From positions 25,316-89,315 of the forward strand of contig CANQDM010000001.1 in NCBI GenBank assembly GCA_947591505.1: DNA of 64,000 bases, in the 5' to 3' direction. Made by a program: the position numbers and the translations under genes. Each line of letters begins with the position of its first letter. Position 1 is the stretch's first letter. Below the pieces are notes generated by a model that was given only the letters and a program-made list of their open reading frames with translations, was not told where the DNA came from and did not search any database. Source of the stretch: an uncultured Bacilli bacterium (lineage in GTDB: Bacteria > Bacillota_I > Bacilli_A > RF39 > UBA660). Below are positions 8,994 through 39,918 of the stretch, in pieces.

Positions 8994-8997
8994 AGTT

Positions 8998-10422: not shown

Positions 10423-10469
10423 TATAACTCTCCATTCTAATGTATTCGGTTTATTTTTTTAAAAAAATT

Positions 10470-10735
10470 AGTCGTAATGTCTTTCCTCTCTGCCTTTACT
10501 ACAGCATCGTATAAAACGGGGGTCTAATATTACAGTTTCTAAAGAAAGGCTGTTATCTTCTACTATAACATCACAGCAAAATTTTTCAGTAACATTTATT
10601 ATTTCTGTATCATTTGTTGTGACATATAAATCATTTATATATTTACTTTTATGTGCATTATTTATTGCCTAACTTATTATTTTTTTAGGCCTTGATGGTA
10701 TTATTGCTAGAACCTCTATATTACCACCTTTAGGT
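10470..10735 (-). pseudogene. frameshifted/truncated remnant of a CMP-N-acylneuraminate-type cytidylyltransferase (CTP_transf_3; NeuA/PseF/LegF-like)
   Basis: Manual translation of the minus strand gives LPKGGNIEVLAIIPSRPKK, then a frameshift, then AINNAHKSKYINDLYVTTNDTEIINVTEKFCCDVIVEDNSLSLETVILDPRFIRCC, then a stop. Both fragments match conserved N-terminal blocks of acylneuraminate cytidylyltransferases. The region has locally higher GC and no intact ORF. Confidence 0.55.
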
Positions 10736-10797
10736 AATTATAGCATAAAAAGAAAATAATGTAAAACCAGTAAACTGCTCTTATAACCATATTAATA

Positions 10798-11838: not shown

Positions 11839-11859
11839 TAAAAATTTTCTCCTAAAAAA

Positions 11860-13191: not shown

Positions 13192-13220
13192 TTCTTCACC
13201 ACATTTTTTACATTATAACA

Positions 13221-14925: not shown

Positions 14926-16043
14926 TTAAATAAATTCTCCCACTTTTTTACAATATTATCTATCTTATATATTTTGCTTTCTTCATAAGCATTTTTGCTA
15001 AATTCTTTTAATTTATTTTGATTGTTTAATAACTCATTAATTTTTTTAGCCATTTCTTTTACTGATCTATTTTTAATTAAATAACCAGTTTTATTATTTT
15101 TGACAATTTCTTTTGGACCAGTTAATATATCAAAAGATATAACAGGAAGACCACAACTATATGCCTCGACTAAAACCAAGGCAAAAGATTCTCTAAAAGA
15201 ACTCATAACATATAAATCGGATTTAGCCATATATTTATATACTTCTTTAATATTAACAAAACCAGGCATTATAACATTGTTTTTCAAATTATATTCTTTA
15301 ATTTTACTAGTGAGTAATTCTTGCTCTTCTCCACTACCTAATAAATATAATTTAAGAGTGGGATTATCTTTCACTGCTAAATGCATTACTTCAATTAAAC
15401 TAGTAAAATCTTTTATCGGGTCAAATCTACCGACAGCGATAATGGCATTATTATTAAGTTTACTTTTTACCGTTATATTTTCAATACTATTTTCTATTCT
15501 GACAATTTTAACATTACTATTTTTAAACCATTCATTATACATATTTTCTTGATATTTATTAACTACTACTACATAATCTAGATTATGATATCCTTTAGTA
15601 ATTTCTCTTTGATATTTTTTATCATCAAAGAAATTATGCTCTTCAGTAATTTTTAATTTACTTTTATTGCCATATTTACTTAATAATTTAGCATATTCAG
15701 TTCGAGTAGAAAAATAAATATCAGCATCATTTAATAATATTTCTTCTTTCATTAATTTACTTTTTAAATATAATATTTTTATTGCTTTAAGACCTTCTTT
15801 AAAACATTTAAATAAACGCAATTGTTTTAAATATTGCTTAAATTCTTCTCTGTTTGGTTTGCCATTATATAAGTATTTTATTTTAATACGATTGGAAATT
15901 TTATAAGCAGGATTTTTTTCTAACTTATAAAATGATATTATCTCAATATTATATTTATCACACAAATTATTAGCCATTGTAATAGTTTGTTTTTCTACTC
16001 CACCATATCCTAAATGTAACATTAATATTTTAACCTTTTTCAT
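14922..16043 (-). CDS. family 4 (GT-B, GT1/GT4) glycosyltransferase
   Basis: 373 aa. C-terminal GT-B retaining-type region (FVNIKEVYKYMAKSDLYVMSSFRESFALVLVEAYSCGLPVIS). Confidence 0.85.
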   Translation of the reverse strand: MKKVKILMLHLGYGGVEKQTITMANNLCDKYNIEIISFYKLEKNPAYKISNRIKIKYLYNGKPNREEFKQYLKQLRLFKCFKEGLKAIKILYLKSKLMKEEILLNDADIYFSTRTEYAKLLSKYGNKSKLKITEEHNFFDDKKYQREITKGYHNLDYVVVVNKYQENMYNEWFKNSNVKIVRIENSIENITVKSKLNNNAIIAVGRFDPIKDFTSLIEVMHLAVKDNPTLKLYLLGSGEEQELLTSKIKEYNLKNNVIMPGFVNIKEVYKYMAKSDLYVMSSFRESFALVLVEAYSCGLPVISFDILTGPKEIVKNNKTGYLIKNRSVKEMAKKINELLNNQNKLKEFSKNAYEESKIYKIDNIVKKWENLFK

Positions 16044-16055
16044 ATTTTCACCCTG

Positions 16056-17009
16056 CTACTTAGTCTTTAATTTAGATTTAATATTTAATAATAATTTAGA
16101 AATATTAAATAGCCCCCTATAATTTAATTTTGCTATTATTTTGCGATTTCTACTAATTTCTTTATAAAATGGTAATTTCCAATAACTTTTAATATTATTT
16201 TTACAATAATTTTGTAATTGTTTTAACACATCTTTTCTACTTTTACTTTTTTGAAAGTTCACTCTATTTATTGAATCAATTAATATATGTTGAAATATTA
16301 AGAAAGAAATTAAATTATTATCACCAACATTATTTTTCTTTGCATATTTTATTAAATCATCAATAGAAGTGATTATATCTAGATGTTTTAATGAATCATT
16401 GTTATTGGTAATAGACCCAAAATGAACATTACAATTATAAAGGCTTTCACTTATTATAGTAATTTTAGGATTTTTTAGCAATAGTTTAGTAGTAAAATTT
16501 AAATCTTCATACCATATTCCTTCAAGAAACTTAATGTTAGCAATTATATCTTTTTTAAATAATTTATTACATACTGAAGGTGTTACTTCATAAATAGAAT
16601 TATACTTTGTGCAATTTAAATTCACCCTACTACCATTATCATAATTATTACACATATCACAAATAACAATATCGCTTTTATTTTTTTTAGCATTATTATA
16701 CATTTTTTCTAAAGCATCATTCATAAGCCAATCATCAGAATCAACAAAACTTATATATTCACCTTTAGCATATTTTAAACCATAATTACGCGCTGAACTT
16801 AAACCCCCATTAGATTTTGAAAATGATTTAATTTTAGTGGAATATTTTTTTTGATATTTATCTATAATTTTTTGTGAATTATCTGGACTTCCATCATTTA
16901 TAACAATAATTTCAATATCTTTTAAAGTTTGATGCACTAAACTATCTAAACATTTAGTCAAATATTTTTCCACATTATAAACTGGCACTATCACACTTAC
17001 TTTTATCAT
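16056..17009 (-). CDS. family 2 glycosyltransferase
   Basis: VSVIVPVYNVEKYL...EIIVINDGSPDNS; DSDD. Confidence 0.9.
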   Translation of the reverse strand: MIKVSVIVPVYNVEKYLTKCLDSLVHQTLKDIEIIVINDGSPDNSQKIIDKYQKKYSTKIKSFSKSNGGLSSARNYGLKYAKGEYISFVDSDDWLMNDALEKMYNNAKKNKSDIVICDMCNNYDNGSRVNLNCTKYNSIYEVTPSVCNKLFKKDIIANIKFLEGIWYEDLNFTTKLLLKNPKITIISESLYNCNVHFGSITNNNDSLKHLDIITSIDDLIKYAKKNNVGDNNLISFLIFQHILIDSINRVNFQKSKSRKDVLKQLQNYCKNNIKSYWKLPFYKEISRNRKIIAKLNYRGLFNISKLLLNIKSKLKTK

Positions 17010-18748
17010 TTTAAACTCCTAAAATCTTTAATTATTTCTTCATATCTATTTTTAATCATTTTTGTTTCTTTGGCAATATTTATTTTTTTATTTTTAACTA
17101 AATTATGATTTTCTAATCTATCTTTATGCATATCATATACTTCTTTAATATTTACTTCATCATTTAATACTTCCGCAAAAACTTCATAATTATCATTTCT
17201 AATACCTAGTTGAATTGGTCTTCTTTTAATATCTGGACATCCACCACCCATAAATTCTAAAGTAGCATAATCTCTGCCATTAAATTTAAGAAGGGACTCT
17301 CCTTTAAAAAATTTAGGCTTTTTAATACCCGCTAAATCAAGTAAAGTTGCCGGTATATCTTTGGTAGCTAAATATTTCTTAATCATTCTTGGCTTGATGT
17401 TTTTATTATAGACAATAAAAGGTACATTATAATTTTCGCGATAATTACTTATTACATATTTTTCTCTAAGGGGATAAAAATAATAAGAAAAACCATGATC
17501 AGCAGTTATAACTACACTTGTATTATCTAATAAATTACTTTTTTCTAAATATTCAAATATATTTTTTATAATACTATCACAATATAAAAGAGATAAATCA
17601 TAGGAAAGAGTACCACAATAATCTTTAGGTAAATTATGAATATATTCATTAATTTTATTAAACTCTTCTTTAATTATTTTTTTATCATTGGTATCATAAG
17701 AAAAGAAATTTTCTGTATAATGCGCATCATCAATATGGACATAACCCATCCAAGGCTTTTTCTCATCTTTATTTTTCTCTAACCAATCTATTGTTAAATT
17801 AGCCACAGTACGAAAAGACCGTTGGTGTTTAAATAAATCATAATGGTCATTAATACGATTCATGATATCTTTATCAAAAATTAGATTTTTATAAGCCGCT
17901 AGTAAACCTTTTACAATTTCTTTGTTCGTAATATTTCGAAATAATTTCCTATAAGGAAACTTTGCATTTTTTATATTATAATGTTTTTGAATTTTTTCTA
18001 TTTCTATAAATGTATCTTGATAATTTTCATGAAACCATTTTCGAAATTCATCATCATTAACTTTATCAATATAATCATAATTTTTAATTTTAAATAAGCG
18101 ATGTTCTTTTCCCATTTCCATTAACTCTTGCAAATATGAATATTGATTTTTTTGTAATAATTTCAGTTCTTTTTGCACAATCTTAATATTTTCAGTTAAA
18201 TTAGCACTGTCAATACAATCATTTAAAAGGATAGTTTTTTTGTCATTGTTTTTAAATAATGTTAATATTTCAATCCAAGCTTTAAGATTATCCTCTAACA
18301 TATCTAATAACATTTGATTTTCTTGTTCTGTTGTTTTTTTATCTAAAAATAATTTTTGATAATATTCAAAACGATAACTCCATAACTGATTTATATCATA
18401 ATTTTCTATATAATTATATTCTTCTGCATCATAATGAACATAGGAAGGATAAATTGTAGGATAATAATTGGCAAAAAAAGTTTTATAGCCTTTTTGACTA
18501 AATTCTGTCATAACTGATGTTTTATTTTTAAATCTTTGCATATATCCTCCTTTGTCCATTGTATCTAATGAGCCAAGTAAAGACATAAGTGCTGCCTCGG
18601 TGTAGGGAGCCTCAGCATACATTTTATCACCAGAAATAGATTTTTTTCTTAAATTATTTAAAAATGGGGCTTTATTTTTACTCATTGGTGAATTAAATAG
18701 CTGATCATTAGTTATAGAATCTAAAACAATAAATAAAACGTTTTTCAT
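17006..18748 (-). CDS. sulfatase-like hydrolase/transferase (alkaline phosphatase superfamily; LTA-synthase/phospho-transferase-like catalytic domain without TM anchor)
   Basis: 580 aa. The N-terminus VLFIVLDSITNDQLF (metal/nucleophile region) and length fit the sulfatase domain. No N-terminal hydrophobic segments. Confidence 0.6.
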   Translation of the reverse strand: MKNVLFIVLDSITNDQLFNSPMSKNKAPFLNNLRKKSISGDKMYAEAPYTEAALMSLLGSLDTMDKGGYMQRFKNKTSVMTEFSQKGYKTFFANYYPTIYPSYVHYDAEEYNYIENYDINQLWSYRFEYYQKLFLDKKTTEQENQMLLDMLEDNLKAWIEILTLFKNNDKKTILLNDCIDSANLTENIKIVQKELKLLQKNQYSYLQELMEMGKEHRLFKIKNYDYIDKVNDDEFRKWFHENYQDTFIEIEKIQKHYNIKNAKFPYRKLFRNITNKEIVKGLLAAYKNLIFDKDIMNRINDHYDLFKHQRSFRTVANLTIDWLEKNKDEKKPWMGYVHIDDAHYTENFFSYDTNDKKIIKEEFNKINEYIHNLPKDYCGTLSYDLSLLYCDSIIKNIFEYLEKSNLLDNTSVVITADHGFSYYFYPLREKYVISNYRENYNVPFIVYNKNIKPRMIKKYLATKDIPATLLDLAGIKKPKFFKGESLLKFNGRDYATLEFMGGGCPDIKRRPIQLGIRNDNYEVFAEVLNDEVNIKEVYDMHKDRLENHNLVKNKKINIAKETKMIKNRYEEIIKDFRSLK

Positions 18749-18752: not shown

Positions 18753-20207
18753 TCACCTATTTTTCTTTAAAATCCCCAAAAATTTATTTATTATAATATA
18801 TATATTTTCATCTTTTACTAAAATAAGAACACCACCATATAGTAACATACTAATAGTTATAATTATTAAAATATTTAAATAAAAGCCCAAATTAATAAAT
18901 TTAACTAAAATTGTTATAGGTATAAATAGTAAAGATAAAAATAAATATAATACATTTTGTTTGGAAAAAATATGTAATTTAATTTTTAATTTATTACGAA
19001 CATATCGATTTTGGAAAATTATTATTAATAATTCCGCTATGGTAGTGGTAATCATCGCTGTACTTGGATTAAATACTTTAAGTAGCACTAATAAAGAATT
19101 AAGAACTAAATTAATTACCCCACAAATAAGAGATATTTTTAAAATCCTTTTTTCTTGATTATTGGGATACATTACTAAATTTGTATAAACTGATTCACAG
19201 CTAATAATTATTCGCATAATACAAGCAATAACTAAAGGTAATACACAAGCACTATATTTTTCCCCAGCATAAATAAATATAACTTCATTGGCTAATGCTA
19301 AAACACCAAAACACATAGGAATAATTACAAAAAGTAATGATGAAAATATTTTATTTAATGAATATTCATAATTTTCTTTTGAATCATTAGCAACTTGGTA
19401 AGAAAGTCTTGGAATAGAAATGTTTATTATTGAATAGGGGATTGAAACCAAAGTTCCCATTATATAATATGGAATATAATAATAACTAACAGCCACTCCA
19501 TTTACAAATTTTCCTAACATTATTTTATCTAATTGACTATATAATAAGCCTATATCAGAAATAATTAATATAGTAGCTAAAGGTATAATATATTTTTTTA
19601 ATTTAATTTCTGAAAAATCAAATTTAATATATTTTTTGGCATAGATGAAACTAACAAAATTATTAGCAAAATTAACTAAAGAAACTATTATTGCATATAG
19701 AGGAACATCAGTTGGCTTTCTTAATAGTAAAAAGATTGATATTAAATAAAGAATTTTAATTATAACACTTTTAATTGTAATAAATTTATAATTTTCAACA
19801 GCTTCATTAACAAATTCAATATAAAATATATTGCCGACAAATTGAATTGTCATGATTATATATAATAGTAAAGCTAAACCAGATGAAGTAAAAAAGGCAT
19901 AGATTAAATAAATGGCACAAACTATTACATTTGATAAAATAGAAATAACAAATAAATTAGTAAATAATTTCGACACTTTCTCTTTATTGTCACGTATTTT
20001 ACTTATTTCTCTAATACCAAAAGTATATAAACCAAAAGAGCCAAAAGTTAAAAATACTTGAAATTCGGCAAAAACAGCATTATAAGTTCCATATAATTCG
20101 ACATCAAGTAATCTTACAACAAATGGTCCAACAAATAAAGGAACAACAATATTGACAAAACTTAAAATAGATTTATATATTGTATTTTTAAATAATGACT
20201 TTTTCAT
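18753..20207 (-). CDS. Wzx-type flippase / polysaccharide biosynthesis protein (second copy)
   Basis: 484 aa, polytopic MOP-like. Confidence 0.7.
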   Translation of the reverse strand: MKKSLFKNTIYKSILSFVNIVVPLFVGPFVVRLLDVELYGTYNAVFAEFQVFLTFGSFGLYTFGIREISKIRDNKEKVSKLFTNLFVISILSNVIVCAIYLIYAFFTSSGLALLLYIIMTIQFVGNIFYIEFVNEAVENYKFITIKSVIIKILYLISIFLLLRKPTDVPLYAIIVSLVNFANNFVSFIYAKKYIKFDFSEIKLKKYIIPLATILIISDIGLLYSQLDKIMLGKFVNGVAVSYYYIPYYIMGTLVSIPYSIINISIPRLSYQVANDSKENYEYSLNKIFSSLLFVIIPMCFGVLALANEVIFIYAGEKYSACVLPLVIACIMRIIISCESVYTNLVMYPNNQEKRILKISLICGVINLVLNSLLVLLKVFNPSTAMITTTIAELLIIIFQNRYVRNKLKIKLHIFSKQNVLYLFLSLLFIPITILVKFINLGFYLNILIIITISMLLYGGVLILVKDENIYIIINKFLGILKKNR

Positions 20208-20276
20208 TTTTTATTCCTTTCACTATGATTAAATTATAACATTTATAAGTATAGAATGCTACTTAAAGAGAACTAG

Positions 20277-21140
20277 CTAACAGTCCTTTTTTAAATATTC
20301 AAGATAACTTTTTCTGGTATTTAAATAATAACAATGGGGAGCTACTCTTTTATCTTTAGGCGGAAGCTCCATATAGTTACCATACATATTGTGTAAATAT
20401 GCATCACTATCTATAGGAATATTAGCTTCAATATCTTCAAACTTAGCTAATTTTCCTTTGCCAAAATAGGCAAGCTTTTGAATTTCCCGATTACCATATG
20501 CCCCACAAAAAGAACCAACATATTTGCAACTATCAAAGTCTAATTTTTGAGAAAATTTATTTGCTATCTCTAACATATTACAATTAATATATTGTAGCGA
20601 TAATAAAAAATAATAAAAATATCTTATCTTATTTCTTATTCCCTTAGTTTTTAATTTTTGGTTTTTAAAATTATATATTTCTTTTAATTTAAAAAATTTA
20701 TGTAAATTTTTAATAGCTTGTTTTTCGGTATTTCCCATGCCATCTAGAGGAAAAACATCAATAAATATGCCTTTATTAATATTTAAATTAGTATCATTTT
20801 CTTCTATAAAAGTCGTATTACTATTTCTAATTTTAGCAAAAAGATTATAATAATTTTTTTCGGTTTTAATCGTTTGAACAAATAAATATTTAGGCAATAA
20901 CTTTTGCGCCTTTGCTAAAAATATTTCATAATCTTTTCTAGGCATTGCTACATCAATATCATCATCCCAAGGAATAAAGCCTTGATGTCTAACACATCCT
21001 ATCGCGGTACCCCCAACTAAGTAATAGCGTAAATTTAACTTTTGACAAACTTTAATAAATTCTTTTAAAATATTTAATTCTACATTGTGTAATTCAGTTA
21101 ATTCTTTTTTGCTTATTTTCATATTATTCACTCTTTTCAT
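20277..21140 (-). CDS. licD: LicD family phosphotransferase (CDP-alcohol/phosphocholine-type transferase to glycan)
   Basis: YYLVGGTAIGCVRHQGFIPWDDDIDVAMPRKDY matches the LicD signature. Confidence 0.8.
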   Translation of the reverse strand: MKRVNNMKISKKELTELHNVELNILKEFIKVCQKLNLRYYLVGGTAIGCVRHQGFIPWDDDIDVAMPRKDYEIFLAKAQKLLPKYLFVQTIKTEKNYYNLFAKIRNSNTTFIEENDTNLNINKGIFIDVFPLDGMGNTEKQAIKNLHKFFKLKEIYNFKNQKLKTKGIRNKIRYFYYFLLSLQYINCNMLEIANKFSQKLDFDSCKYVGSFCGAYGNREIQKLAYFGKGKLAKFEDIEANIPIDSDAYLHNMYGNYMELPPKDKRVAPHCYYLNTRKSYLEYLKKDC

Positions 21141-21431
21141 TTGTATTCTTCACATTATAAAAATTGAAAATATTATAATCACTTTTTTTAATATAATAAA
21201 TCGTAACATTAAAGATATATATTAACTCTTGGCGTAATTTTCATTTTAATAGTTGGTGATGAAAATATTCTTTATCAAATGTACTAATAATCCACTTTGA
21301 AGAATTAAAATAGCTATTATCATATCAAAAAAGTGGAATAGCTAAAAAGAAACACTCAACTCATTTATCACACCTATAACATTATAAATGATAAACAAAG
21401 AAAAAGAAAGTATTTTAACTTTCAAAAATTT

Positions 21432-22211
21432 TTATATTGGTAATAGTAATCTTAAAGCAAATTTCCATAAAGGCATTTTTTTAGAAATATTTAATCTAGG
21501 TAATTTTAAATTATCATCTTTAATATCAATTTTGCGATGGTTTTTATCTGGACCAAATGTAAATGCTAATTTAAAGTTATTATCTTTTAAGGCTTTAACA
21601 TAATCATCATTATATGCTCCAAACGGATATGCTAAATATCTAGTTTTATATACTTTATCCATCTTTTTAATATCATTGTTTACTTCTTCATAAGTTTTCT
21701 CGCCACGAATATGTAAATCATAAGTATGAGATGCTATTTCTATATTAGGATATTCTTTTTTTATTTTTTCTATAGTATCCATATTAAAATATTGTTCATT
21801 ATCACCATTTTCAACATATTTGCCAACAACAAAAACCACACCGTTCATATTATATTTCTTTAATATAGCAAAAGCATATTTATAATTATTATAATAACCA
21901 TCATCAAATGTAATTAAAACACTTTTATGACTCTTTTTACATTGTTTATTTTTCCAACAATTTAAATCTTTTAAGGTAAGTGATTTATAGCCCATTTTCT
22001 TTAACAATTTTATTTCCTCTTCAAATTTTTCTAAATCAATAATCATACTATCATTAGTAGCATTTTCTTTTTTTGGCAAAACAGCATGATATCCTAAAAC
22101 AGCAATTTTATTATCATTACCTATATAAATAGATGTTACTATTATACTTAATAATACTAATATAGACATTAAAATTATTATTGTTCTCTTTTTCATTAAT
22201 ACTTTCCTCAT
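21432..22211 (-). CDS. polysaccharide deacetylase (NodB homology domain), membrane anchored
   Basis: N-terminal TM, then the TFDDGY motif and a His-containing NodB block (ASHTYDLH). Confidence 0.8.
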   Translation of the reverse strand: MRKVLMKKRTIIILMSILVLLSIIVTSIYIGNDNKIAVLGYHAVLPKKENATNDSMIIDLEKFEEEIKLLKKMGYKSLTLKDLNCWKNKQCKKSHKSVLITFDDGYYNNYKYAFAILKKYNMNGVVFVVGKYVENGDNEQYFNMDTIEKIKKEYPNIEIASHTYDLHIRGEKTYEEVNNDIKKMDKVYKTRYLAYPFGAYNDDYVKALKDNNFKLAFTFGPDKNHRKIDIKDDNLKLPRLNISKKMPLWKFALRLLLPI

Positions 22212-22217
22212 TTTTTA

Positions 22218-23111
22218 TTACACATCATATATTTTATCTATTTGTTTTAGCTCATTAAAGGTATCTATTTCAATTATATCTTCAAAATGACATTCTCTAA
22301 TAGTAATTTTATAATTATTCTTTTTAACATCTAATTGTACTTGTTCCCAATATTTTTCTTTACCACCAGGAGATAAGTAAACTTCTTCAATATCTTGCGC
22401 TAATTTTTTACCATCTTCTTCATTATAATAAGATATACCTACCATTTGATAGCAGTTAATTCCCCCAATTTTTTCATTTACTATAATGTTATTTTTAACT
22501 TCTACACACCAATCTTCTGTTCTTGCAACTGGTATACCTAAAAAATTACTAGAATATTCATATTTTTGGATTAAATTAGGATTTGATAAATATAAATCGG
22601 ATTCTAAAACATAAGCATTTTCTAATAAATCTTTAGCAAGATAAGCAGATGATATATTATTAGCTTCATTATATTTAACATTTTCGATAAATTTAATATT
22701 AGGGTATTTATGTAATAATATTTCAAATTGTTCTCCTAAATAACCTCTTACAATATAGATTTCTTCAATCCCAGCTTTAACTACAGCATCAAGAAGTGTC
22801 TCAATAATTCTTTTACCATGAACAAGGACTAAAGGCTTGGGAGTATTTAGGGTAATTGGTACCATTCTAGAGCCAAAGCCTGCTGCTAAAAAGATAGCTC
22901 TTTTTACTCTATATGGTTCTAGTACTGCTAAACCTTTTTTAGTAATTGCATTATTTTCATCAATTAATTTTTCATTTAATAATTCATTAATTATTTTATT
23001 TACTAGCCCTACTGATATATTAGTAAAATTGGCAATATCTCTTTGCGATATTTTATTTTTATTTTTTTCAATTGTTACTAAAACATCAAATTGTTTTTTA
23101 GTTAGCTTCAT
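22218..23111 (-). CDS. winged-HTH domain fused to LicC-like sugar/alcohol-phosphate nucleotidyltransferase (CTP:phosphocholine cytidylyltransferase family)
   Basis: Residues 1-65 look like a MarR/wHTH fold (ISQRDIANFTNISVGLVNKIINEL). They are followed by AIFLAAGFGSRMVPITLNTPKPLV, the GxGxR nucleotidyltransferase motif, with a LicC-like remainder. Confidence 0.7.
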   Translation of the reverse strand: MKLTKKQFDVLVTIEKNKNKISQRDIANFTNISVGLVNKIINELLNEKLIDENNAITKKGLAVLEPYRVKRAIFLAAGFGSRMVPITLNTPKPLVLVHGKRIIETLLDAVVKAGIEEIYIVRGYLGEQFEILLHKYPNIKFIENVKYNEANNISSAYLAKDLLENAYVLESDLYLSNPNLIQKYEYSSNFLGIPVARTEDWCVEVKNNIIVNEKIGGINCYQMVGISYYNEEDGKKLAQDIEEVYLSPGGKEKYWEQVQLDVKKNNYKITIRECHFEDIIEIDTFNELKQIDKIYDV

Positions 23112-24687
23112 ACATATACTCCCTTCTATTATCTTTTCTATTTATTAAATATATAACTCCTTTTATTATAATATTAAATATTAAAATGATTAATGATATT
23201 ATTGCTGCTTCTCCTAGCATCATATTACCTTCATAATTATTAATTAATAAAGATAATGGCATTGTTCTTGTATTAAATAAGAAAGTGACTGCCGAAATAG
23301 TTATCATTGAGTTAACAAAGAAATAACTGAGCATTTCTCTAATTGTTTTTTTTGTACACGGAATAATAACATCTTTAATTATTTTAAATAAACTTATATT
23401 ACAAGTTTTAGCTACTACTTCATAATTAGGATTAACTTTTTGCATGGCATTATAGGCCATTAGATAAGGTGTTGCAATAAAGTGAATAATATTAACTAAA
23501 ATAAGAATAGTAAAAGTATTATAAATAAATGTGCCATTAAAACTAATAGTATAAGATAAACCTAAAACTATACCAGGTATAGCTAGAGAACATATAGTAA
23601 GTAAATGTAGTAATTTAACAAATTTATTTTTAACTCTAGCTGTAACATAAGCTGTAAAATAACTAATTATTGTCCCAAATATAGCTACCATTATTGAGAT
23701 AAATAAAGAATTAAAAATATAATCAGTTATACCACTAGCAAATACATAATTAATATGATTAAAAGAAAATCTATTATTTAAAACAACATTATCAACAAAA
23801 GCATAATAAATAAATGAACCAAGTAAAACAGTAATAAAAATTATTACAAAATATAAACCTATTTTAGTAAAAATATCTCGCAATTTATTTTGTCTAACAT
23901 GGTATTTTTTAGTCTCTCCATCACTACTTGTATAATCTTTAAAGAAGGTATCAAATAAGAATGATATTAAAGCTGGTATAAGTAAAAATAAACCAATCAT
24001 TGTTCCCTTAGAATAATTAAGTAGGCCAATTACTTCTTTGTATAGTAATACTGGTAATGTAATAAATTTACCACCAACAGCTAAAGGCACACCATAATCA
24101 GTAAATATCATCGTAAATACGGCAAAAAATGAAGATAATAAAGGTTTCTTTAAATAACATAATGTTACCTTTTTAAATGTTTGCCATTTATTAAGTCCTA
24201 GAATTTCTGCTGTATCATACATATTATTATCAATATAATTATAACCATCATCAATAATTAAAAAGGCAATTGGAAAAGAATAAATAACTGAACCCATAAT
24301 TATACCTAAACTACCAATGATATTAAAATTAAATATTCGAGAAATTATTCCATTAGTACCAAATAAATTTATTAAACCTAGACCATGAGATATTGATGGT
24401 ATTAACATCGGCAGTGTTATTAATAATTTTAAAATCGATTTATGTTTAATATTAGTTCTATTTAAAGTAAAAGATAAAAAGAATGCTAGTAATACTGATA
24501 TAACTGTAGCAATACTAGTTACAAATAATGAATTAAACATAGCTTCTTTAAATGCCCCAGATGTAATTAGATTTTGAAAACTATTATTACTAAAATCAAT
24601 TTGTAATAACATATTTATTAAAGGAAATACTACAGATATTAATAAAAATATAAAAATAAAGATACTTAATTTACTTCTCTTTTGCAT
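23098..24687 (-). CDS. ABC importer permease, fused two-domain type (ThiP/FbpB/PhnUV-like)
   Basis: 529 aa with two EAA-loop-containing ABC TM type-1 halves. Confidence 0.75.
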   Translation of the reverse strand: MQKRSKLSIFIFIFLLISVVFPLINMLLQIDFSNNSFQNLITSGAFKEAMFNSLFVTSIATVISVLLAFFLSFTLNRTNIKHKSILKLLITLPMLIPSISHGLGLINLFGTNGIISRIFNFNIIGSLGIIMGSVIYSFPIAFLIIDDGYNYIDNNMYDTAEILGLNKWQTFKKVTLCYLKKPLLSSFFAVFTMIFTDYGVPLAVGGKFITLPVLLYKEVIGLLNYSKGTMIGLFLLIPALISFLFDTFFKDYTSSDGETKKYHVRQNKLRDIFTKIGLYFVIIFITVLLGSFIYYAFVDNVVLNNRFSFNHINYVFASGITDYIFNSLFISIMVAIFGTIISYFTAYVTARVKNKFVKLLHLLTICSLAIPGIVLGLSYTISFNGTFIYNTFTILILVNIIHFIATPYLMAYNAMQKVNPNYEVVAKTCNISLFKIIKDVIIPCTKKTIREMLSYFFVNSMITISAVTFLFNTRTMPLSLLINNYEGNMMLGEAAIISLIILIFNIIIKGVIYLINRKDNRREYMYEAN

Positions 24688-25448
24688 TATAAATCAATCC
24701 CTGTACATTTTTCTATTGATCTTACTTTTTCGACTAAATGATCTTGAACAAATGATTTAACATAATCATTTATTGGCTTATTAAATATATTATGAGGAGT
24801 ATCTATTTGTTCAATATTTCCCTCTTTCATAATCATAACTCGATCAGATAATGAGAAGGCTTCTTCTTGATCATGGGTAATAAAAATCATCGTAGTATTA
24901 AACTTCTTTTGGATTTCTTTTAATTCTTTTTTCAAGATTAATTTATTATCAGCATCTAATGCCGATAAGGCTTCATCAAATAAAATTATATCAGGATTTA
25001 ATGCGAGCGTTCTTGCAATTGCTACTCTTTGCATTTGACCACCAGAAAGCTCATGGGGATATTTATTTAAATGTTCTTCCATATTTAACATTTTTAAAAT
25101 ATCTAAGCTTTTTTCTTCGGCTTTTTTCTTATTTTTTAATTTTATATTTAAAGCATACATAACATTATTTAAAACTGTCATATTAGGAAATAAAGCATAG
25201 TTTTGAAAAACTATGCCCATATTTCTTTTAGCGGGATCTAATTTATTAATATTCTTACCATTTTTAATAATTTCACCACTATCTAATGTTTCAATACCAA
25301 TAAGTATTTTTAAAAGTGTTGTTTTACCACAGCCAGATGGCCCTAAAATAGATAAGAATTCACCATCATTAACAGTAAAAGAAATATTATTTAGAACAGT
25401 TTTTTTATTGTATGTCTTGCTTAAGTTTTTAACTTCAAGACTAACCAT
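24687..25448 (-). CDS. ABC transporter ATP-binding protein (short PotA/ThiQ-like, no C-terminal regulatory domain)
   Basis: Walker A GPSGCGKTT, signature LSGGQMQR, Walker B ILFDEALSALD; 253 aa. Confidence 0.9.
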   Translation of the reverse strand: MVSLEVKNLSKTYNKKTVLNNISFTVNDGEFLSILGPSGCGKTTLLKILIGIETLDSGEIIKNGKNINKLDPAKRNMGIVFQNYALFPNMTVLNNVMYALNIKLKNKKKAEEKSLDILKMLNMEEHLNKYPHELSGGQMQRVAIARTLALNPDIILFDEALSALDADNKLILKKELKEIQKKFNTTMIFITHDQEEAFSLSDRVMIMKEGNIEQIDTPHNIFNKPINDYVKSFVQDHLVEKVRSIEKCTGIDL

Positions 25449-26421
25449 TTACCTCACTACTCCATTTTTCTGTTAATTCATCTTTTAGTTTGTTATCATC
25501 TATGCCTTTCATATCAGCCATTTTTAAATCAGTTGGATAATTATCAACATTATTTTTTTGATTTTTTAAAATAACATCAGGCATAAAATTTTCTTTATCA
25601 TATTTATTAAAATCATTTAAAATCCATTCAAATACTTCTTTTAAATGTTCTTTATTTTCTCTATTCTTAATAATAGAAATTGATGTTGTATTATAAGGCG
25701 CACCAGTCTTTAAAGTAACAATTTTAAAATCATACCCATCATTAATATCTTTAGCGCCTTGAGATGTCATACCCATCGCAATAGCAATTTCGCCTTGTTT
25801 AAGTAAGTTTGTTGGACCAGATCCTGATGTAGTAAATTCACGAACATTACTTTTTAACTTTTTAAAATAAGCTAAGGCATCTTTTTCACCCATAATATTT
25901 ACGGCATTTAAATAAAAGGCATAACCCGTACCAGAAGTTGATGGATCTGGCATAGAAATTAAATTCTTATAATCTTTTTTTAATAAATCTTCATAAGTTT
26001 CAGGTACATCTAATTTATGTTCTTTAAAATATTTGTTATCTATTATTAGATTCATAGTGTATTTATCCCAAATATAATATTTGTTAGAACTAATAACACC
26101 ATCTTCATAAATATCAGTACTAAAATCTGATAAATCTGCAAAATAATCTTTTAAATTTTCCATATGTGATGTTTCTAAACCTAGTATAATATCAGCCTCA
26201 ATATTTTCTTTTTCATTTTCTATTTTAGCCGCTACATTACCAGTAGCCATTTGTTGAACTACAATGTTCAAATCTGGAAACTTTTCTTTAATTTGTTCTT
26301 TTAAAGCTTGATTCCTTTCTTCTTCCATTGATGAATATATAACTATTGATTCACTCTTACCACAACCAGCTATTAACATTGTTAAAAATAGCCCCATAAT
26401 TATTGCAAACACTTTTTTCAT
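25441..26421 (-). CDS. ABC importer substrate-binding lipoprotein (ThiB/FbpA/PhnS/PotD-like cluster)
   Basis: Lipobox LIAGCGK. IVIYSS...KFPDLNIVV fits the iron/thiamine/aminoethylphosphonate SBP pattern. Confidence 0.75.
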   Translation of the reverse strand: MKKVFAIIMGLFLTMLIAGCGKSESIVIYSSMEEERNQALKEQIKEKFPDLNIVVQQMATGNVAAKIENEKENIEADIILGLETSHMENLKDYFADLSDFSTDIYEDGVISSNKYYIWDKYTMNLIIDNKYFKEHKLDVPETYEDLLKKDYKNLISMPDPSTSGTGYAFYLNAVNIMGEKDALAYFKKLKSNVREFTTSGSGPTNLLKQGEIAIAMGMTSQGAKDINDGYDFKIVTLKTGAPYNTTSISIIKNRENKEHLKEVFEWILNDFNKYDKENFMPDVILKNQKNNVDNYPTDLKMADMKGIDDNKLKDELTEKWSSEVNG

Positions 26422-26446
26422 AGTTCACTCCCCGTTCAATATAACT

Positions 26447-26475
26447 ACTATATCGCAAAAAAATGAACACGTCAA
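26447..26475 (-). promoter_or_regulatory. sigma-A-like promoter of the ABC-LicC-deacetylase operon (-35 TTGACG, 17-nt spacer, -10 TATAGT)
   Basis: Read on the minus strand. Positioned ~25 nt upstream of the RBS GGGGAG of the SBP gene. Confidence 0.45.
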
Positions 26476-26479
26476 CCAT

Positions 26480-26512
26480 TAGATAAAAAAAGAAAGATTT
26501 TTCACTTTCTTT
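26480..26512 (-). terminator. Rho-independent terminator of the cadherin-like protein gene (hairpin AAAGAAAG-loop-CTTTCTTT plus U-tract), overlapping its stop codon
   Basis: Inverted repeat followed by T-run on the minus strand. Confidence 0.5.
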
Positions 26513-27965
26513 TGCGTTTTTTTCTTTTTCTATCCTCTTCTAAAATATTATATTCTTCTTCGTCCTCTTCATCATTAACAACTTCTATTTCGTTAACATC
26601 TTTTTCTTCAACTGCTTCTTCTATTTCTTTCTTTTTATTTTTCTTTTCTTTTGGCTTTTCTTCATCTAATATAGAATCATTTGCCAATTTATTCTTTTTT
26701 CTTTTGTTCATATTTAAAGTAATAATACAAATTAGAGATAAGAATAGACCAACACCAAAGGCAATAATAACATAGAAATATAAATTGTTTTGTTTAAGAA
26801 GAGCATCAGTTAATTCTTGATCATATAATGTAAATGTCTTATTAACTGTATCATAAGTATAAAAATCTTTTTTACCAGTAGCAACATTCATCCCATAAAC
26901 AACATAGAATTTAGAATTATCATTAAGTCTAAATACTTCATAATTTTGACCATCTATTTTAACATTTGCTTTAGTAAGTTTATCTAACTTGCCATCATAA
27001 TTTAAAATGACAATATTTAAACTAGTCCCTACTATTTCTTTATACTTAGTATATTTACCATTATTATAAATAAAGTTTACTATTTTACCTTCGCTATCTT
27101 TTAGTCCTACTAAAGTATAATTTATTTTATCATTATGACATGCGGGAATAGTAAATTCCCCAATTGTAACTTCACTTTCCGCATACAAGGAAGGACAAGT
27201 ATAGTTTTCTCTTAATTTAATTACAGTATAATCTACGCCAGCATCACTTACATTAATGGGATGTTCGTCAATTACATTAACAATTAAATTATAAGTTTTT
27301 TCACTACCATTTTCCGCTCTTACAACAATTTTTATATTATTAGCGCCTTCAACTAATTCAACTTCACCAGCACCACTTACTGATGCTCTGCTATCATTTT
27401 TAGTAGCTTTAATATTTACTGTCTTAGTACCTTCTGGAACCGTTACAGAATAATCTAAAACATCTTTTTTAAACTCTGGTGTTATTTCAAAGCCTTCTAC
27501 TTCTAAACCCTTTAAATTATTATCTTTAGAATAAGATGCTTCTAATTCTTTTTGGGTAATAATTGAAATAGTTTTAGAACCAGGACTTAAAGTTATAGCA
27601 CTTTCATCAGTTGCATATGCTTCATAATTACTTATTTTTAAATTAGTTGAGCCTGATTTTTTTGCTTGAAATGTAAATGTATATTTTTTAGAACTAACTC
27701 CAGTTGCAACTGAATCAACCATTTTATTGCCACCAAATTCAGTTGATGCTGAAGTTAATTGTAAATAATTGCTATCATAATCTAAAGACATTGACCAACT
27801 ACCAATAGATACATCACTAGACAAAGTAACAGTAACTGTTACCTTATTACCAACTACTACTTTATTAGTACTACTAATGGTAACTGATCCTGATGCTGCA
27901 TTTGTTATAAGTGGTAAAGCAAAAGCAGCAATTAATGTCAATAATAATAATCTTATTTTTTTCAT
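26502..27965 (-). CDS. cell-surface protein with cadherin-like beta-sandwich domain(s), C-terminal TM anchor and poly-Lys/Arg tail
   Basis: Signal peptide, Ig-like segments (LKGLEVEGFEITPEFKKDVLDYSVTV...YNLIVNV), C-terminal hydrophobic helix, then a KRKKRKRK tail. Confidence 0.55.
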   Translation of the reverse strand: MKKIRLLLLTLIAAFALPLITNAASGSVTISSTNKVVVGNKVTVTVTLSSDVSIGSWSMSLDYDSNYLQLTSASTEFGGNKMVDSVATGVSSKKYTFTFQAKKSGSTNLKISNYEAYATDESAITLSPGSKTISIITQKELEASYSKDNNLKGLEVEGFEITPEFKKDVLDYSVTVPEGTKTVNIKATKNDSRASVSGAGEVELVEGANNIKIVVRAENGSEKTYNLIVNVIDEHPINVSDAGVDYTVIKLRENYTCPSLYAESEVTIGEFTIPACHNDKINYTLVGLKDSEGKIVNFIYNNGKYTKYKEIVGTSLNIVILNYDGKLDKLTKANVKIDGQNYEVFRLNDNSKFYVVYGMNVATGKKDFYTYDTVNKTFTLYDQELTDALLKQNNLYFYVIIAFGVGLFLSLICIITLNMNKRKKNKLANDSILDEEKPKEKKNKKKEIEEAVEEKDVNEIEVVNDEEDEEEYNILEEDRKRKKRKRK

Positions 27966-27985
27966 AAAATTTCCTTTCTATATTT

Positions 27986-29704
27986 TTATTGATTAATACT
28001 GGAAATACCAGCAATACTTTTTTGAACTTGTAATAAATCTAGGGCATTTATTTTTCCATCTCCTGATGTATCACCAGCTAAAGATTTTGCACCGCTCAAA
28101 GAATAAATGCCAGCAATATTCTTTTGTACTTGTAGTAAATCTAGAGCATTTATTTTTCCATCTCCTGATGTATCACCATGAATTATTACTGTTAAAGTTT
28201 CATTTGTTTCCGCATTTTTTACTGTTATTTTATAACCAGTCCCAATAATACCATCACTAACTGCATTACCATCGACATTTTTTATTGTTACTGAATTTGC
28301 TCCTGCTATACTTTCAATTGTGTTTTTTACATTTTTAATACTCGTATCAGCATTTATGCCAGAAATATATCCACTTGAATATTTATAACCACTACTAACT
28401 ATTATAGTACTTATAGCAAGTTTTGATGGATCAGTACTATCTGGAGTGGAAACAGCGCCACTATTAACTGTATAGTTTGAATTATCCATATTATTATATA
28501 TAGGAATATAGAAAACAAAACTATTAGACAATAATCCAAGTTTACTATATGAATTATAAGTTGATTTAGCTTCACTAGATGGGGCTTGAATATTAGTCAT
28601 ATATTGATGACTATATACATTTCCATTATTTGGAACTACATTATATTTTTGCAAATATCCAGAGTATTGACCAGCTTGAATATATGAAGAATAAATACTA
28701 TCAGCACCGCCTTTTAAAGCATTTTCTAATCCTTTCCAATTATGATTTTTAGCATAAGCTAATCCACATTCCGTTGGACTTTTGCCAGTAGCACATGTAT
28801 CACTAACACCATAATTATAAAAATTATAATAGTCTTCATAACCAGGATATACGCCACTATATAAATTATATTCGCTTGTCTTGGCTCCTAGTTCTTGTAA
28901 TACTCTGCTAGCAATAAAAACAGGGCTTACTTTAGATTTTTTACCAGCATTAACTAAAGCACCACCAAAATCATGATTCAATTCAACATGATATTTATAG
29001 AACGCTGCATGATCTATAACATCTATTGCAGCAGGTTTATAAGCATTTGTCAATTTATCGTTATAACTTAAATGTTCAAATTGAAAAATATATTTTTCAT
29101 TAAGCCAATTACGAGGATCCATATAATAAGCTACTGCAGTTGAAGAGGCTGGATACCAACTTTTAGAATATGGATTTTTACAAGATTTATCAATATTTGA
29201 AGGATCACTATTTTCAATATAACTTGTACCACATTCACTTTCTTTATTAACTGCAGTACTCCAATCAAGGCCAGTTAAAACAGCTTTAAAGTCCCAATTA
29301 GGGTATTTACTTTTAAGTTCACATAATCCTGGCCAATAAGTGGCAGGAAATCCAGCAATTGAAAATTCTTTTTCACAATTAGTAGTTGGATTTACATTAT
29401 ATACCAATTCTTTTTTTTCAACATATTTACTACAAACATAACCTGAAGCACTTGCCTCATAATAAATTTTATACCATCCACCACTGCAACCTTTTTCATC
29501 TTTATATAATTCATCACTAACCATATTATATTCAGCATTTTTTACTAAAGTTTTTACACTACTATAATTAGTTCCGGGACCTTGTCTTAAATAAACCCCT
29601 GAACCAGTTATTTTTGCGCGATAAGACATAGCATAACTAATATTTACATTAATCATAAACAAAATAGCAAATAAACAAATATACTTTAAATACTTCTTTT
29701 GCAT
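27986..29704 (-). CDS. secreted SH3b-domain cell-wall hydrolase-like protein (glucosaminidase-like core) with C-terminal tandem dockerin-type Ca-binding repeats
   Basis: Signal peptide, then an SH3b-like block (YRAKITGSGVYLRQGPGTNYSS...GWYKIYY). Central domain contains ASRVLQELGA. The C-terminus has two copies of GDTSGDGKINALDLLQVQK(N/S)IAGI, matching the dockerin D-x-x-x-D-G-x-I-N-x-x-D loop plus helix. Confidence 0.55.
   Translation of the reverse strand: MQKKYLKYICLFAILFMINVNISYAMSYRAKITGSGVYLRQGPGTNYSSVKTLVKNAEYNMVSDELYKDEKGCSGGWYKIYYEASASGYVCSKYVEKKELVYNVNPTTNCEKEFSIAGFPATYWPGLCELKSKYPNWDFKAVLTGLDWSTAVNKESECGTSYIENSDPSNIDKSCKNPYSKSWYPASSTAVAYYMDPRNWLNEKYIFQFEHLSYNDKLTNAYKPAAIDVIDHAAFYKYHVELNHDFGGALVNAGKKSKVSPVFIASRVLQELGAKTSEYNLYSGVYPGYEDYYNFYNYGVSDTCATGKSPTECGLAYAKNHNWKGLENALKGGADSIYSSYIQAGQYSGYLQKYNVVPNNGNVYSHQYMTNIQAPSSEAKSTYNSYSKLGLLSNSFVFYIPIYNNMDNSNYTVNSGAVSTPDSTDPSKLAISTIIVSSGYKYSSGYISGINADTSIKNVKNTIESIAGANSVTIKNVDGNAVSDGIIGTGYKITVKNAETNETLTVIIHGDTSGDGKINALDLLQVQKNIAGIYSLSGAKSLAGDTSGDGKINALDLLQVQKSIAGISSINQ
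28040..28200. repeat. near-identical tandem DNA duplication (~70-bp unit) encoding the two dockerin segments
   Basis: ...gtaataaatctagggcatttatttttccatctcctgatgtatcacca... recurs as ...gtagtaaatctagagcatttatttttccatctcctgatgtatcacca... Confidence 0.7.
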
Positions 29705-30907: not shown

Positions 30908-32539
30908 GATGTAGTAAACTAGATGTGGGAAAATAAATTTTTTCTAAAATAAAAGAGAAAACACTCAAAATTTTAAAAACAGTTATATAATTAAATTATC
31001 AAAAATAAATATACTGACCTTGATACGAACTCGAAGTTCAAAGGTTTTAAGGAGTTGTTTTCTCAATGAATATATTAACACTTTTTAATTCATTTGTTAA
31101 CCATTTATCAAATATTTTAGATAATAATTTATTCCTGCATGAATTAGAACATAATCTTTCTGATTCAACTAATTCTTTAAATCTTGATATTTTAAAACAA
31201 ATTTTGGAATATTTAGATTTAGAATATAAAAATTCTAAAGAAAGAAAGGAGAAGTATTATGTCCAGCAAACTAGAGAAAGAACTTTAATCACTTCCTTAG
31301 GTATTGTTACCTTTAATAAAACTTATTACAAATCTAAAAAGAAAATTAATGGTAAATACCAATATTATAGTTATTTAGAAGATTATATTGGCATTGATAA
31401 ATGGGCTAAACTTTCTTTATCTGCTGAAGTTGCTTTAATAAACAACGCTTTAGATAATGGGTGTTCTTGGGCTTCTAAAAATTCTATCCCTAATTATATT
31501 GTTTCCAGACAAACCATTTCTCAAAAAATTAAAAATATTAACTATAATTATGTCGAACCTCTTAAGAAAAGAAACACCCCTTCAACTATTTATATTGAAG
31601 CTGATGAAGTTCATGCCAATCTTCAATTTAAACATTCCAATTTCAAAAAGAATAAAATTGTTCCTGTTATTCTTACTCACGAAGGGCATCTTGAAGACTT
31701 TGCTAAGAAAAAACAACTTAAAAATACTCATTATATCGCTTCTTCTATTTTGAAAACTAATCTTCTTTGGAATGAAACATATAATTATCTTGATTCTATT
31801 TATAATCTTGACGAAGTTAATACTATATTTATTTCTGGTGATGGTGGTGCTTGGATTAAAGGTTATGATGAAGCTTTTCCTAATGCTATTTATGTCCTTG
31901 ATAAATTTCATTATCGTAAAGCTTTAAATTCTATCTTTAAAAGACAATCTCCTTTAACTGAAATTGCTGATGAATATCTTCACAGTAATATGATTGATGA
32001 ATTTAAAATCCTTGTTAAATCTCAAATTGAACTTTTCCCTGATCAAAAGGATTTATTTCTTAAAAATCAAAAATATCTTTTAAATAATATTGAAGGTATT
32101 ATTAATCAACATCATCCTTTATACAACTGTCCTTGTTCTATGGAAGGTCATATCTCTAACAAATATGCTAAATTTATTACTTCTAGACCTCATTCTTATT
32201 CTTCTGATGGTCTGGAAAATACTATTCAACTTCTTACTATGAAAGCTAACAACATTTCCCTTAATGAACAAATTTATCACAATTTTAAATATGGTTCCTC
32301 TTTTTACAAAAAACTTAATCTTCAAAAATTTATTTCTAATTTTAGATTACAATCTAATCACCATTTTGATAATCTTCAAAAATATAATATTGAACATTCC
32401 ATTGATAATTCTTCTTTCTCTCTAAAAGATAACTATCGACTTGATTATTTTCTTTCTAAAAGAAATTAAAAAAATACAAATTTAATTATATAACTTGTAT
32501 TTTTTCTCTTATTTTTTCCAACATTTACTTTACATCACC
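30908..32539 (+). mobile_element. insertion sequence, ISLre2/ISL3-like (1632 bp) with imperfect terminal IRs and a 9-bp direct repeat TGTTACCAA (30899-30907 / 32540-32548)
   Basis: Single 467-aa transposase ORF. Left end GATGTAGTAAACTAGATG compares with the reverse complement of the right end GGTGATGTAAAGTAAATG. Identical 9-bp flanking repeat. Confidence 0.5.
31066..32469 (+). CDS. DDE transposase (ISLre2/UPF0236- or ISL3-like)
   Basis: 467 aa with IYIEADEVH..., FISGDGGAWIKG, and AIYVLDKFHYRKALN (the D-x-FH block seen in ISL3/ISLre2 transposases). Confidence 0.5.
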   Translation: MNILTLFNSFVNHLSNILDNNLFLHELEHNLSDSTNSLNLDILKQILEYLDLEYKNSKERKEKYYVQQTRERTLITSLGIVTFNKTYYKSKKKINGKYQYYSYLEDYIGIDKWAKLSLSAEVALINNALDNGCSWASKNSIPNYIVSRQTISQKIKNINYNYVEPLKKRNTPSTIYIEADEVHANLQFKHSNFKKNKIVPVILTHEGHLEDFAKKKQLKNTHYIASSILKTNLLWNETYNYLDSIYNLDEVNTIFISGDGGAWIKGYDEAFPNAIYVLDKFHYRKALNSIFKRQSPLTEIADEYLHSNMIDEFKILVKSQIELFPDQKDLFLKNQKYLLNNIEGIINQHHPLYNCPCSMEGHISNKYAKFITSRPHSYSSDGLENTIQLLTMKANNISLNEQIYHNFKYGSSFYKKLNLQKFISNFRLQSNHHFDNLQKYNIEHSIDNSSFSLKDNYRLDYFLSKRN

Positions 32540-39900: not shown

Positions 39901-39918
39901 ATTTCCCCCTTTAGACTT

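Follow-up and report, generated by a model that had tools for sequence, protein, structure and literature searches.

Surface phosphonates and phosphocholine shape the interaction of bacteria with their hosts and with phages. The Lic1 pathway of Streptococcus pneumoniae and Haemophilus influenzae consists of the kinase LicA, the permease LicB, LicC and LicD. In the phosphonyl-tailoring (Pnt) pathway, the cytidylyltransferase PntC and LicD-like transferases have been described inside clusters that encode the phosphoenolpyruvate (PEP) mutase Ppm, and published work on surface phosphonates finds the cytidylyltransferase through such clusters (Rice et al. 2019, PMC6697681; Li & Horsman 2022, PMC8942020). 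Text searches of both papers gave no importer, salvage or helix/DNA-binding domain for PntC. The 2-aminoethylphosphonate (AEP) importers PhnSTUV and AepXVW are known in AEP catabolism (PMC8316502), and our full-text literature searches returned no bacterial phosphocholine transporter and no route by which phosphocholine or AEP is salvaged into glycans. Here, we analyzed a 64-kb stretch of the genome of an uncultured Bacilli bacterium (contig CANQDM010000001.1; hereafter the window), in which an ATP-binding cassette (ABC) importer shares an operon with a nucleotidyltransferase (NT) bearing a winged helix-turn-helix (wHTH) domain, next to a LicD-family gene and a glycan-assembly locus. Based on computational evidence throughout (sequence, synteny and predicted structure), we favor with moderate confidence the reading that this locus is a salvage version of the Pnt pathway, in which AEP would be imported, activated and transferred to a cell-wall glycan.

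Genes beside the transferase and its orthologues

All five open reading frames (ORFs) that an earlier note, made from the letters of this DNA, had placed in one operon are present in the order it gave: substrate-binding protein (SBP), ATPase, permease, wHTH-NT and NodB deacetylase (Table 1; coordinates without a prefix refer to the window, and related loci are labelled L006-L107). From the SBP gene to the deacetylase gene, the junctions are overlaps of 8, 1 and 14 nt followed by a gap of 6 nt, and the overlapping genes suggest translational coupling. The same note had seen neither a kinase nor a LicB permease and had named licA, pepM and ppd as genes to search for. Pfam scans of all window ORFs of at least 120 aa detected no Choline_kinase/APH (PF01633/PF01636), EamA or PEP_mutase domain, and a tblastn search of the window with PEP mutase (PepM), phosphonopyruvate decarboxylase (Ppd), AEP aminotransferase (AEPT) and kinase queries gave zero matches, so that within the 64 kb both approaches agree with the note and none of the three genes was found.

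A metagenome scan with a 15-sequence wHTH-NT alignment as query yielded 80 loci, each with an NT of 56-74% full-length identity, wHTH domain included. Neighbor classes were assigned by local tblastn. The ABC module lies beside the NT in 28 of the 80 loci (17 of the 38 that have at least 4 kb on both sides), and a class-V aminotransferase, a PEP mutase and a thiamine pyrophosphate (TPP) decarboxylase take this place in 22 (13 of 38). One locus, L107, contains both importer and synthesis genes (1 of 38), 29 contain neither (22 of them on short contigs; 7 of 38), and none has a kinase beside the NT (0 of 80; 0 of 38). Seven kinase-domain queries run by tblastn against the 80 metagenome loci, and four of these run against the window and all loci, gave zero matches.

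The synthesis genes of L039 are canonical AEP-biosynthesis genes, each passing its NCBIfam equivalog cut-off (PhnW-AepZ, 445 vs 360.8 bits; PEP mutase, 416 vs 320 bits; phosphonopyruvate decarboxylase, 463 vs 312 bits). NT orthologues that head such AEPT-PepM-Ppd operons are 59-64% identical to the window NT. In a neighbor-joining tree, ABC-linked and PepM-linked NTs interleave in one clade, with kinase-linked relatives and LicC outside; the transferase phylogeny that the earlier note had suggested as a check thus groups the window NT with PepM-linked enzymes and apart from LicC. Furthermore, the active-site signature of the window NT (AEDYWYWEED) shares nine of ten residues with all 17 distinct PepM-linked orthologues (AEDLWYWEED in 17/17), while LicC reads YDDYWYWDED. 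Because of the PepM-operon orthologues, the interleaved tree and the shared signature, we assign the window NT to the PntC orthologue group. The importer and the genes for AEP synthesis would then be alternative, and occasionally joint, suppliers of one substrate. In L039 and L043, the PEP mutase itself carries an N-terminal PF01467 cytidylyltransferase-like domain (Table 1), so that synthesis-type operons hold two different putative phosphonate cytidylyltransferases, a situation noted before in some clusters (PMC8942020).

The association between importer and transferase is conserved. The SBP-ATPase-permease-NT block is intact in the near relatives with enough flanking sequence (L006-L010 and L013-L017; SBP identity 64-92%), and the ABC block is also found in 29 of the 80 distant loci, where SBP identity drops to 36% and GC content spans 24-55%. 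Two independent assemblies (L018 and L019) encode an 858-aa permease::NT fusion, immediately preceded by the SBP and ATPase genes, and L107, of an unrelated lineage, encodes a second, independent fusion of 831 aa. In L026, whose NT is 62% identical, the permease gene lies immediately upstream. The L018 fusion adjoins DegV and dap genes and has no LicD or glycan genes nearby. A scan of genome contigs with the single SBP sequence returned five close relatives, all uncultured Bacilli metagenome-assembled genomes (MAGs) labelled 'Lapin', which we read as rabbit gut, and identical copies of the NT gene occur on short contigs from the ENA/Logan samples ERR10663694-6.

The last gene of the operon behaves differently. 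The deacetylase, which has an N-terminal transmembrane anchor and weak PgaB/IcaB-type matches, occurs in the window, the identical contigs and L013, whereas L006-L010, L014-L019 and the remaining relatives lack it. The earlier inclusion of a NodB deacetylase in the operon therefore applies here and to the closest relative, L013, but does not extend to the other relatives, and because of this limited distribution we regard the gene as accessory rather than core.

The importer and its predicted ligand

The SBP has a signal peptide and a lipobox (...LIAGC20) whose cysteine, C20, is invariant in 42 homologues. Among NCBIfam families, the three subunits match best those of the putative AEP importer PhnS2T2U2, with PhnS2 for the SBP (E 3.6e-49, 168 bits vs a cut-off of 392.75), PhnT2 for the ATPase (E 1.1e-92, 311 bits vs 457.7) and, over its full length, PhnU2 for the permease (E 1.6e-108, 364 bits vs 593.25). 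The ATPase alignment covers positions 4-237 of the 353-position PhnT2 model and stops there, which indicates that this subunit has no C-terminal regulatory domain.

AfuA binds glucose-6-phosphate and fructose-6-phosphate, VcA0625 glucose-6-phosphate and P5PA pyridoxal phosphate; all three were formerly annotated as iron binders. By sequence and by fold, these proteins are the closest solved structures to the window SBP (AfuA and P5PA, PDB 4R73, 8X1A and 6WCE, at ~20-23% identity; AlphaFold2 model of the SBP, pLDDT 86.9). AfuA coordinates phosphate through S37, G38, S148, G149, T150 and G185 (PMC4546632, PMC8427247). The aligned SBP residues T60, G61, S163, G164, T165 and G200 are invariant or nearly so in the 42 homologues and are kept in the 40%-identical SBP of L018, whereas S220, Q221 and N244 stand where AfuA has its sugar ligands H205, D206 and E229. 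Because the phosphate-binding residues are conserved and the sugar ligands are not, the ligand is predicted to be an organophosphate, and the importer very probably takes up a phosphate ester or phosphonate rather than iron, thiamine or free choline. The residues of a candidate aromatic cage in the SBP (W118, Y121 and Y243) are not conserved in the L018 SBP.

The earlier note had proposed that the importer delivers a phosphorus-bearing head group to a LicC/PntC-like transferase, with no kinase involved. At the level of sequence, this proposal is supported by the conserved block, the permease-NT fusions, the lack of kinases in all 80 loci and the phosphate site of the SBP.

Since the characterized relatives PhnSTUV and AepXVW serve AEP catabolism (PMC8316502), the importer might instead supply AEP as a source of phosphorus or nitrogen. 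We give this explanation the least weight of those considered and hold it to be highly improbable: neither the window nor the ABC-type loci have a catabolic gene of phnW/X/A/Y/Z type beside the module, and the module is coupled or fused to a cytidylyltransferase and located within a LicD/TagA/Wzx glycan locus, both here and in many relatives.

The transferase active site and other head groups

The NT combines a winged helix (residues 1-~64, with HTH_24/MarR_2 matching residues 3-51) and a LicC-fold cytidylyltransferase domain (residues 65-297, with NTP_transferase matching from residue 72). It aligns with S. pneumoniae LicC (PDB 1JYK) at 35% identity over 224 positions (E 1.3e-28). In PntC of T. 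denticola, E104 and E196 contact the amine of AEP (PMC6697681); the window NT has glutamates at these positions (E170 and E256), where LicC has D105 and D192. The LicC aromatic box W136/Y190/W191 is fully retained in the window NT (W201, Y254 and W255), and the AEP-preferring PntC of A. rimae retains aromatic residues too (Rice et al., PMC6697681), so the box does not discriminate between head groups. Two candidate markers were reduced in weight. The Asp-to-Glu changes at LicC D105 and D192 were dropped as sufficient proof of AEP specificity after a survey of 150 representatives and kept as support in view of the signature common to all 17 PepM-linked orthologues, and the aromatic box as a choline-type mark, derived from L020, lost weight because the PepM-linked orthologues and A. 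rimae PntC show the same box.

We searched the catalytic domain against 1.84 billion representative proteins and applied Pfam scans to the hits. Distant relatives of the NT (36-52% identity) proved to be fused to choline/ethanolamine kinases in several arrangements, and these kinase-fused enzymes pair with EamA or EutH carriers or a CDP-alcohol phosphatidyltransferase, never with the ABC system. The multi-domain relatives in L020, L021 and L024 (Table 1) are of the types wHTH-NT-choline kinase-NT, wHTH-NT-kinase and NT-kinase and adjoin a CDP-alcohol phosphatidyltransferase, LicD together with EamA, or EutH. In the double-domain proteins, the N-terminal transferase domain is without the LicC aromatic box, a difference that points to two head-group specificities within a single protein. 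The kinase-type relative L020 was the only locus in which EamA was detected.

Several observations weigh against AEP salvage. The second glutamate position varies between Glu and Asp among ABC-linked NTs, and most of the 150 representatives surveyed have Glu at the first position, kinase-fused enzymes included, which makes the Glu signature weakly diagnostic. The retained aromatic box also suits phosphocholine. All three transporter subunits score far below the equivalog cut-offs, so the importer belongs to a sister family of PhnS2T2U2 whose ligand could differ. In seven long loci, both the transporter and PepM are missing near the NT, and a kinase (licA) or PEP mutase (ppm) could sit outside the 64 kb. 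Finally, the LicD sequences are only 25-35% identical and too divergent for donor inference.

In one alternative, the importer would take phosphocholine from host or dietary lipids, a true LicC would make CDP-choline, and LicD would add phosphocholine to the glycan. This is compatible with the full-length identity to pneumococcal LicC and the retained aromatic box, with the NCBI name of family members ('phosphocholine cytidylyltransferase family protein') and with an SBP predicted to bind some organophosphate. L020 also fits, since its box-containing wHTH-NT-kinase fusion occurs with LicD and the LicB-like EamA, and a box-less NT-kinase fusion in the same locus occurs with EutH. We nevertheless consider phosphocholine salvage unlikely. 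The closest functionally anchored orthologues stand first in PepM-Ppd-AEPT operons and are mixed with the ABC-linked enzymes in the tree, the kinase-linked relatives of choline type show lower identity and fall outside that clade, and the best-matching family of the transporter is an AEP importer. The aromatic residues of A. rimae PntC and the loss of a conserved aromatic cage once the L018 SBP is included argue in the same direction. Between the two head groups that the earlier note had put forward, phosphocholine or 2-AEP, the orthologues in PepM operons and the PhnS2T2U2 best match thus favor AEP, and phosphocholine is demoted.

The scores below the AEP equivalog cut-offs would also allow phosphoethanolamine or another small amino-alkyl phosphate or phosphonate (1-hydroxy-AEP, N-methyl-AEP) as head group. 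Phosphoethanolamine closely resembles AEP, and NT relatives are fused to choline/ethanolamine kinases and found beside EutH. Three ABC-type loci (L010, L063 and L095) additionally encode a distant AEPT-like class-V aminotransferase (PhnW-AepZ, 131 bits, below the cut-off) and a second LicC-like transferase of 234 aa without a wHTH domain, a pair that hints at, and could serve, further tailoring of imported AEP. We judge this alternative quite unlikely, because the closest functional anchor is the core AEP trio, with no conserved tailoring enzymes alongside.

A further alternative is that the importer takes up an unphosphorylated amine (choline or ethanolamine), or that its adjacency to the NT is meaningless and a kinase or PEP mutase is encoded elsewhere in the genome. 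The genome was seen over 64 kb, kinase-containing relatives come from the same rabbit-gut samples (L024/L025), and seven loci have the NT with neither partner nearby. However, the L024 kinase fusion stems from an organism of 32% GC, as opposed to 24% in the window, and the six phosphate-coordinating residues of the SBP are conserved. The gene overlaps, the two independent permease-NT fusions, an operator shared by importer, synthesis and transferase genes (see below) and adjacency in 29 of 80 loci across wide divergence likewise speak against this explanation, which we regard as very unlikely.

Candidate operator, glycan locus and known systems

The SBP promoter is overlapped by a candidate palindromic operator (TGTTCA-N25-TGAACG) whose left arm abuts the -35 box, whose spacer contains the -10 box, and whose right arm lies just before the ribosome-binding site. 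It is the sole match to GTTCA-N20-30-TGAAC in the window (0.29 expected). Across 1.37 Mb of related loci, the motif YGTTCA-N22-28-TGAACR has 54 distinct instances vs 3 in reversed-sequence controls, and 42 of the 54 are situated at most 300 bp upstream of gene starts (SBP, 21; wHTH-NT, 12; AEP aminotransferase, 7; ATPase, 2). L107 has one operator before its importer operon and another before its oppositely oriented synthesis operon, and in L020 and L024 the motif is also located ahead of the kinase-fused genes. The ABC-, PepM- and kinase-linked classes all keep the putative recognition helix of the wHTH domain (approximately SQR...S-L-G-T-V-N). The operator is probably the site of the wHTH domain, and its presence upstream of import, synthesis and transferase genes suggests that this domain autoregulates AEP supply. 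In the simplest reading, the wHTH-NT would bind the operator and control the supply of its own substrate; both the DNA binding and the direction of regulation are what we infer from this arrangement.

The sigma-A-like promoter described in the earlier note is present, and a -35 box with a -10-like box occurs at the same place upstream of the SBP gene in six relatives, among them L006, L013, L014, L015 and L017. On the other hand, promoter-like consensus matches are not above chance in this very AT-rich window (53 vs 60 expected; GC about 23-25%). An Rfam scan of positions 19500-27500 revealed no riboswitch or other RNA element. LicD starts 291 bp beyond the end of the deacetylase gene and is followed by the glycan-assembly genes, matching the gap of about 290 bp given before, and a scan of this gap for intrinsic terminators found none. 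LicD is located at most 10 kb from the module in L006-L009, L017, L033, L034, L037, L053 and L105; LicD-like transferases are reported from Ppm/PntC clusters as well (PMC6697681).

Taken together, we propose the following mechanism. The SBP, the short ATPase and the fused permease would import AEP from the gut lumen. The wHTH-LicC-fold enzyme, as a PntC orthologue, would then convert AEP and CTP to CMP-AEP, a step that needs no kinase because AEP already bears phosphorus. The LicD-family transferase is predicted to place the aminoethylphosphonyl group on the repeat unit of a cell-wall glycan, presumably one that the neighboring TagA/GT2/GT4 enzymes assemble and Wzx flips, and the anchored deacetylase may de-N-acetylate the exported glycan as a lineage-specific add-on. 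Through its wHTH domain, the transferase probably binds the palindrome across its own promoter, so that, much as with BirA or NadR, the state of the enzyme would set how much AEP is supplied.

Table 1 Coordinates of the operon, its surroundings and the related features mentioned in the text
Feature	Position	Strand	Remarks
Lipoprotein SBP, 326 aa	25441-26421	-	cluster-D/SBP_bac_6 type; predicted ligand AEP
ABC ATPase, 253 aa	24687-25448	-	PF00005; best NCBIfam match PhnT2
Fused two-domain ABC permease, 529 aa	23098-24687	-	two BPD_transp_1 halves
wHTH-NT, 297 aa	22218-23111	-	HTH_24/MarR_2 + NTP_transferase
Membrane-anchored NodB/PgaB/IcaB-type polysaccharide de-N-acetylase, 259 aa	21432-22211	-	PF01522, E 1.1e-22
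LicD-family phosphotransferase, 287 aa	20277-21140	-	PF04991, E 1.3e-52
Promoter	26447-26475	-	consensus scan; -35 TTGACG 26475-26470, 17-nt spacer, -10 TATAGT 26452-26447
Candidate palindromic operator TGTTCA-N25-TGAACG	26433-26469	.	overlaps SBP promoter
Operator copies elsewhere	L006 6649-6684; L013 3871-3907; L020 7955-7990, 11557-11592; L024 1820-1857; L107 6550, 14567
Wzx flippase	18753-20207	-	Pfam
Cytoplasmic sulfatase-superfamily protein	17006-18748	-	Pfam
GT2	16056-17009	-	Pfam
GT4	14922-16043	-	Pfam
GT2	13951-14925	-	Pfam
TagA/WecG	13221-13943	-	Pfam
Second Wzx-type flippase	8998-10422
O-antigen-ligase-like proteins	7434-8993; 11860-13191
Flavin amine-oxidase-like protein	2747-4297
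Two surface proteins	26502-29704		directly upstream of the operon
UPF0236-family transposase	31066-32469
IS200-like Y1 transposase	52183-52653
DDE transposase	59929-61059
Permease::NT fusions	L018 8001-10577; L107 8402-10897
Multi-domain NT-kinase relatives	L024 1924-4602; L020 8001-9746, 11624-13381; L021 5025-7891
AEPT-like aminotransferase and second LicC-like transferase	L010 18358-20114
PF01467-PEP mutase	L039 12177-13472; L043 12038-13348

The glycan locus (1476-13943 and onward) has doubled components, with two Wzx-type flippases and two O-antigen-ligase-like proteins, which points to a pair of polymers or to a single polymer with a side-chain system. The region 1476-13943 further encodes an Acyl_transf_3 acyltransferase, a GtrA/DUF6020 protein, a flavin amine-oxidase-like protein and a UDP-GlcNAc 2-epimerase. 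Between GT2 and Wzx lies a 580-aa protein of the sulfatase/alkaline-phosphatase superfamily with weak choline-sulfatase/arylsulfatase-type matches and, on inspection by eye, no obvious signal peptide or transmembrane segment. On the other side of the operon, the two surface proteins are a cadherin-like protein with a C-terminal transmembrane segment and a Lys/Glu-rich tail, and a protein with SH3 and type-I dockerin domains; a similar cadherin-like/dockerin pair is found upstream of the L010 module. The window also contains three transposase genes of mobile elements and, at 39067-44979, a LysR-type regulator gene followed by genes for a 350-aa protein with a faint radical-SAM match, a phosphoketolase-like (XFP) protein and two PHP-domain proteins.

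A wider proposal, which falls just short of what we would call probable, is that genome-reduced gut Bacilli decorate their cell-wall glycans with AEP that they scavenge and do not produce, through a dedicated importer that hands its substrate to PntC, and that wHTH-PntC acts as sensor and regulator of import or synthesis. This would be the first described bacterial phosphonate-salvage decoration route and a new enzyme-repressor family. If it holds, the AEP would come from other gut organisms or the diet, the importer would be physically fused to PntC in some lineages, and one conserved operator would govern import of AEP in some lineages and its de novo synthesis in others. If AEP is salvaged, ppm-based genome surveys would miss phosphonate-decorated bacteria, phosphonates would be a cross-fed public good in gut communities, and the many proteins of these uncultured Bacilli annotated as 'phosphocholine cytidylyltransferase family' would be misannotated. 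With 54 operator variants occurring naturally and either of two operons as its target, the predicted wHTH-PntC/operator pair would be a compact, testable regulatory system.

BirA joins an HTH to a biotin ligase, and NadR joins one to an NMN adenylyltransferase. The window NT resembles both in having an N-terminal HTH on a nucleotidyl-transferring enzyme and a palindrome that overlaps the promoter of substrate-supply genes. It differs in that its sequence is unrelated to theirs, the arms of its operator lie ~31 bp apart from center to center, and DNA binding and effector are predicted.

Compared with PhnS2T2U2 (TIGR03261/03265/03262) and AepXVW, the importer has the same architecture of an SBP_bac_6-type SBP, one ATPase and one fused two-domain permease as in PhnU2, and PhnS2T2U2 is the best NCBIfam match for each of the three subunits. 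In contrast, the window subunits fall below the equivalog cut-offs, the ATPase is without the C-terminal domain, and the partners of the genes are a cytidylyltransferase and a glycan locus, whereas those of PhnSTUV and AepXVW are phosphonate catabolic genes. With AfuABC and P5PA, the SBP shares the Ser/Thr-Gly phosphate-binding loops, but the AfuA sugar ligands are replaced.

The Lic1 pathway shares with the window a LicC-fold transferase, a LicD-family transferase and, as a prediction here, a small zwitterionic phosphorus head group attached to a cell-wall glycan. Unlike Lic1, neither the window nor the 80 related loci contain LicA or LicB/EamA, uptake would proceed through a binding-protein-dependent ABC system, and the functional anchors point to AEP, not choline.

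The closest parallel is the Pnt pathway (PMC6697681, PMC8942020), with which the locus shares a LicC-fold cytidylyltransferase that has Glu at both amine-contacting positions of T. denticola PntC and orthologues heading AEPT-PepM-Ppd operons, as well as a LicD-family transferase and glycan-assembly genes nearby. The window has an ABC importer instead of Ppm, Ppd and AEPT, and its NT adds a wHTH domain and an operator. Judged from these genes, the locus would use the same activation and transfer chemistry as the Pnt pathway, with another source of phosphonate and an added regulatory domain.

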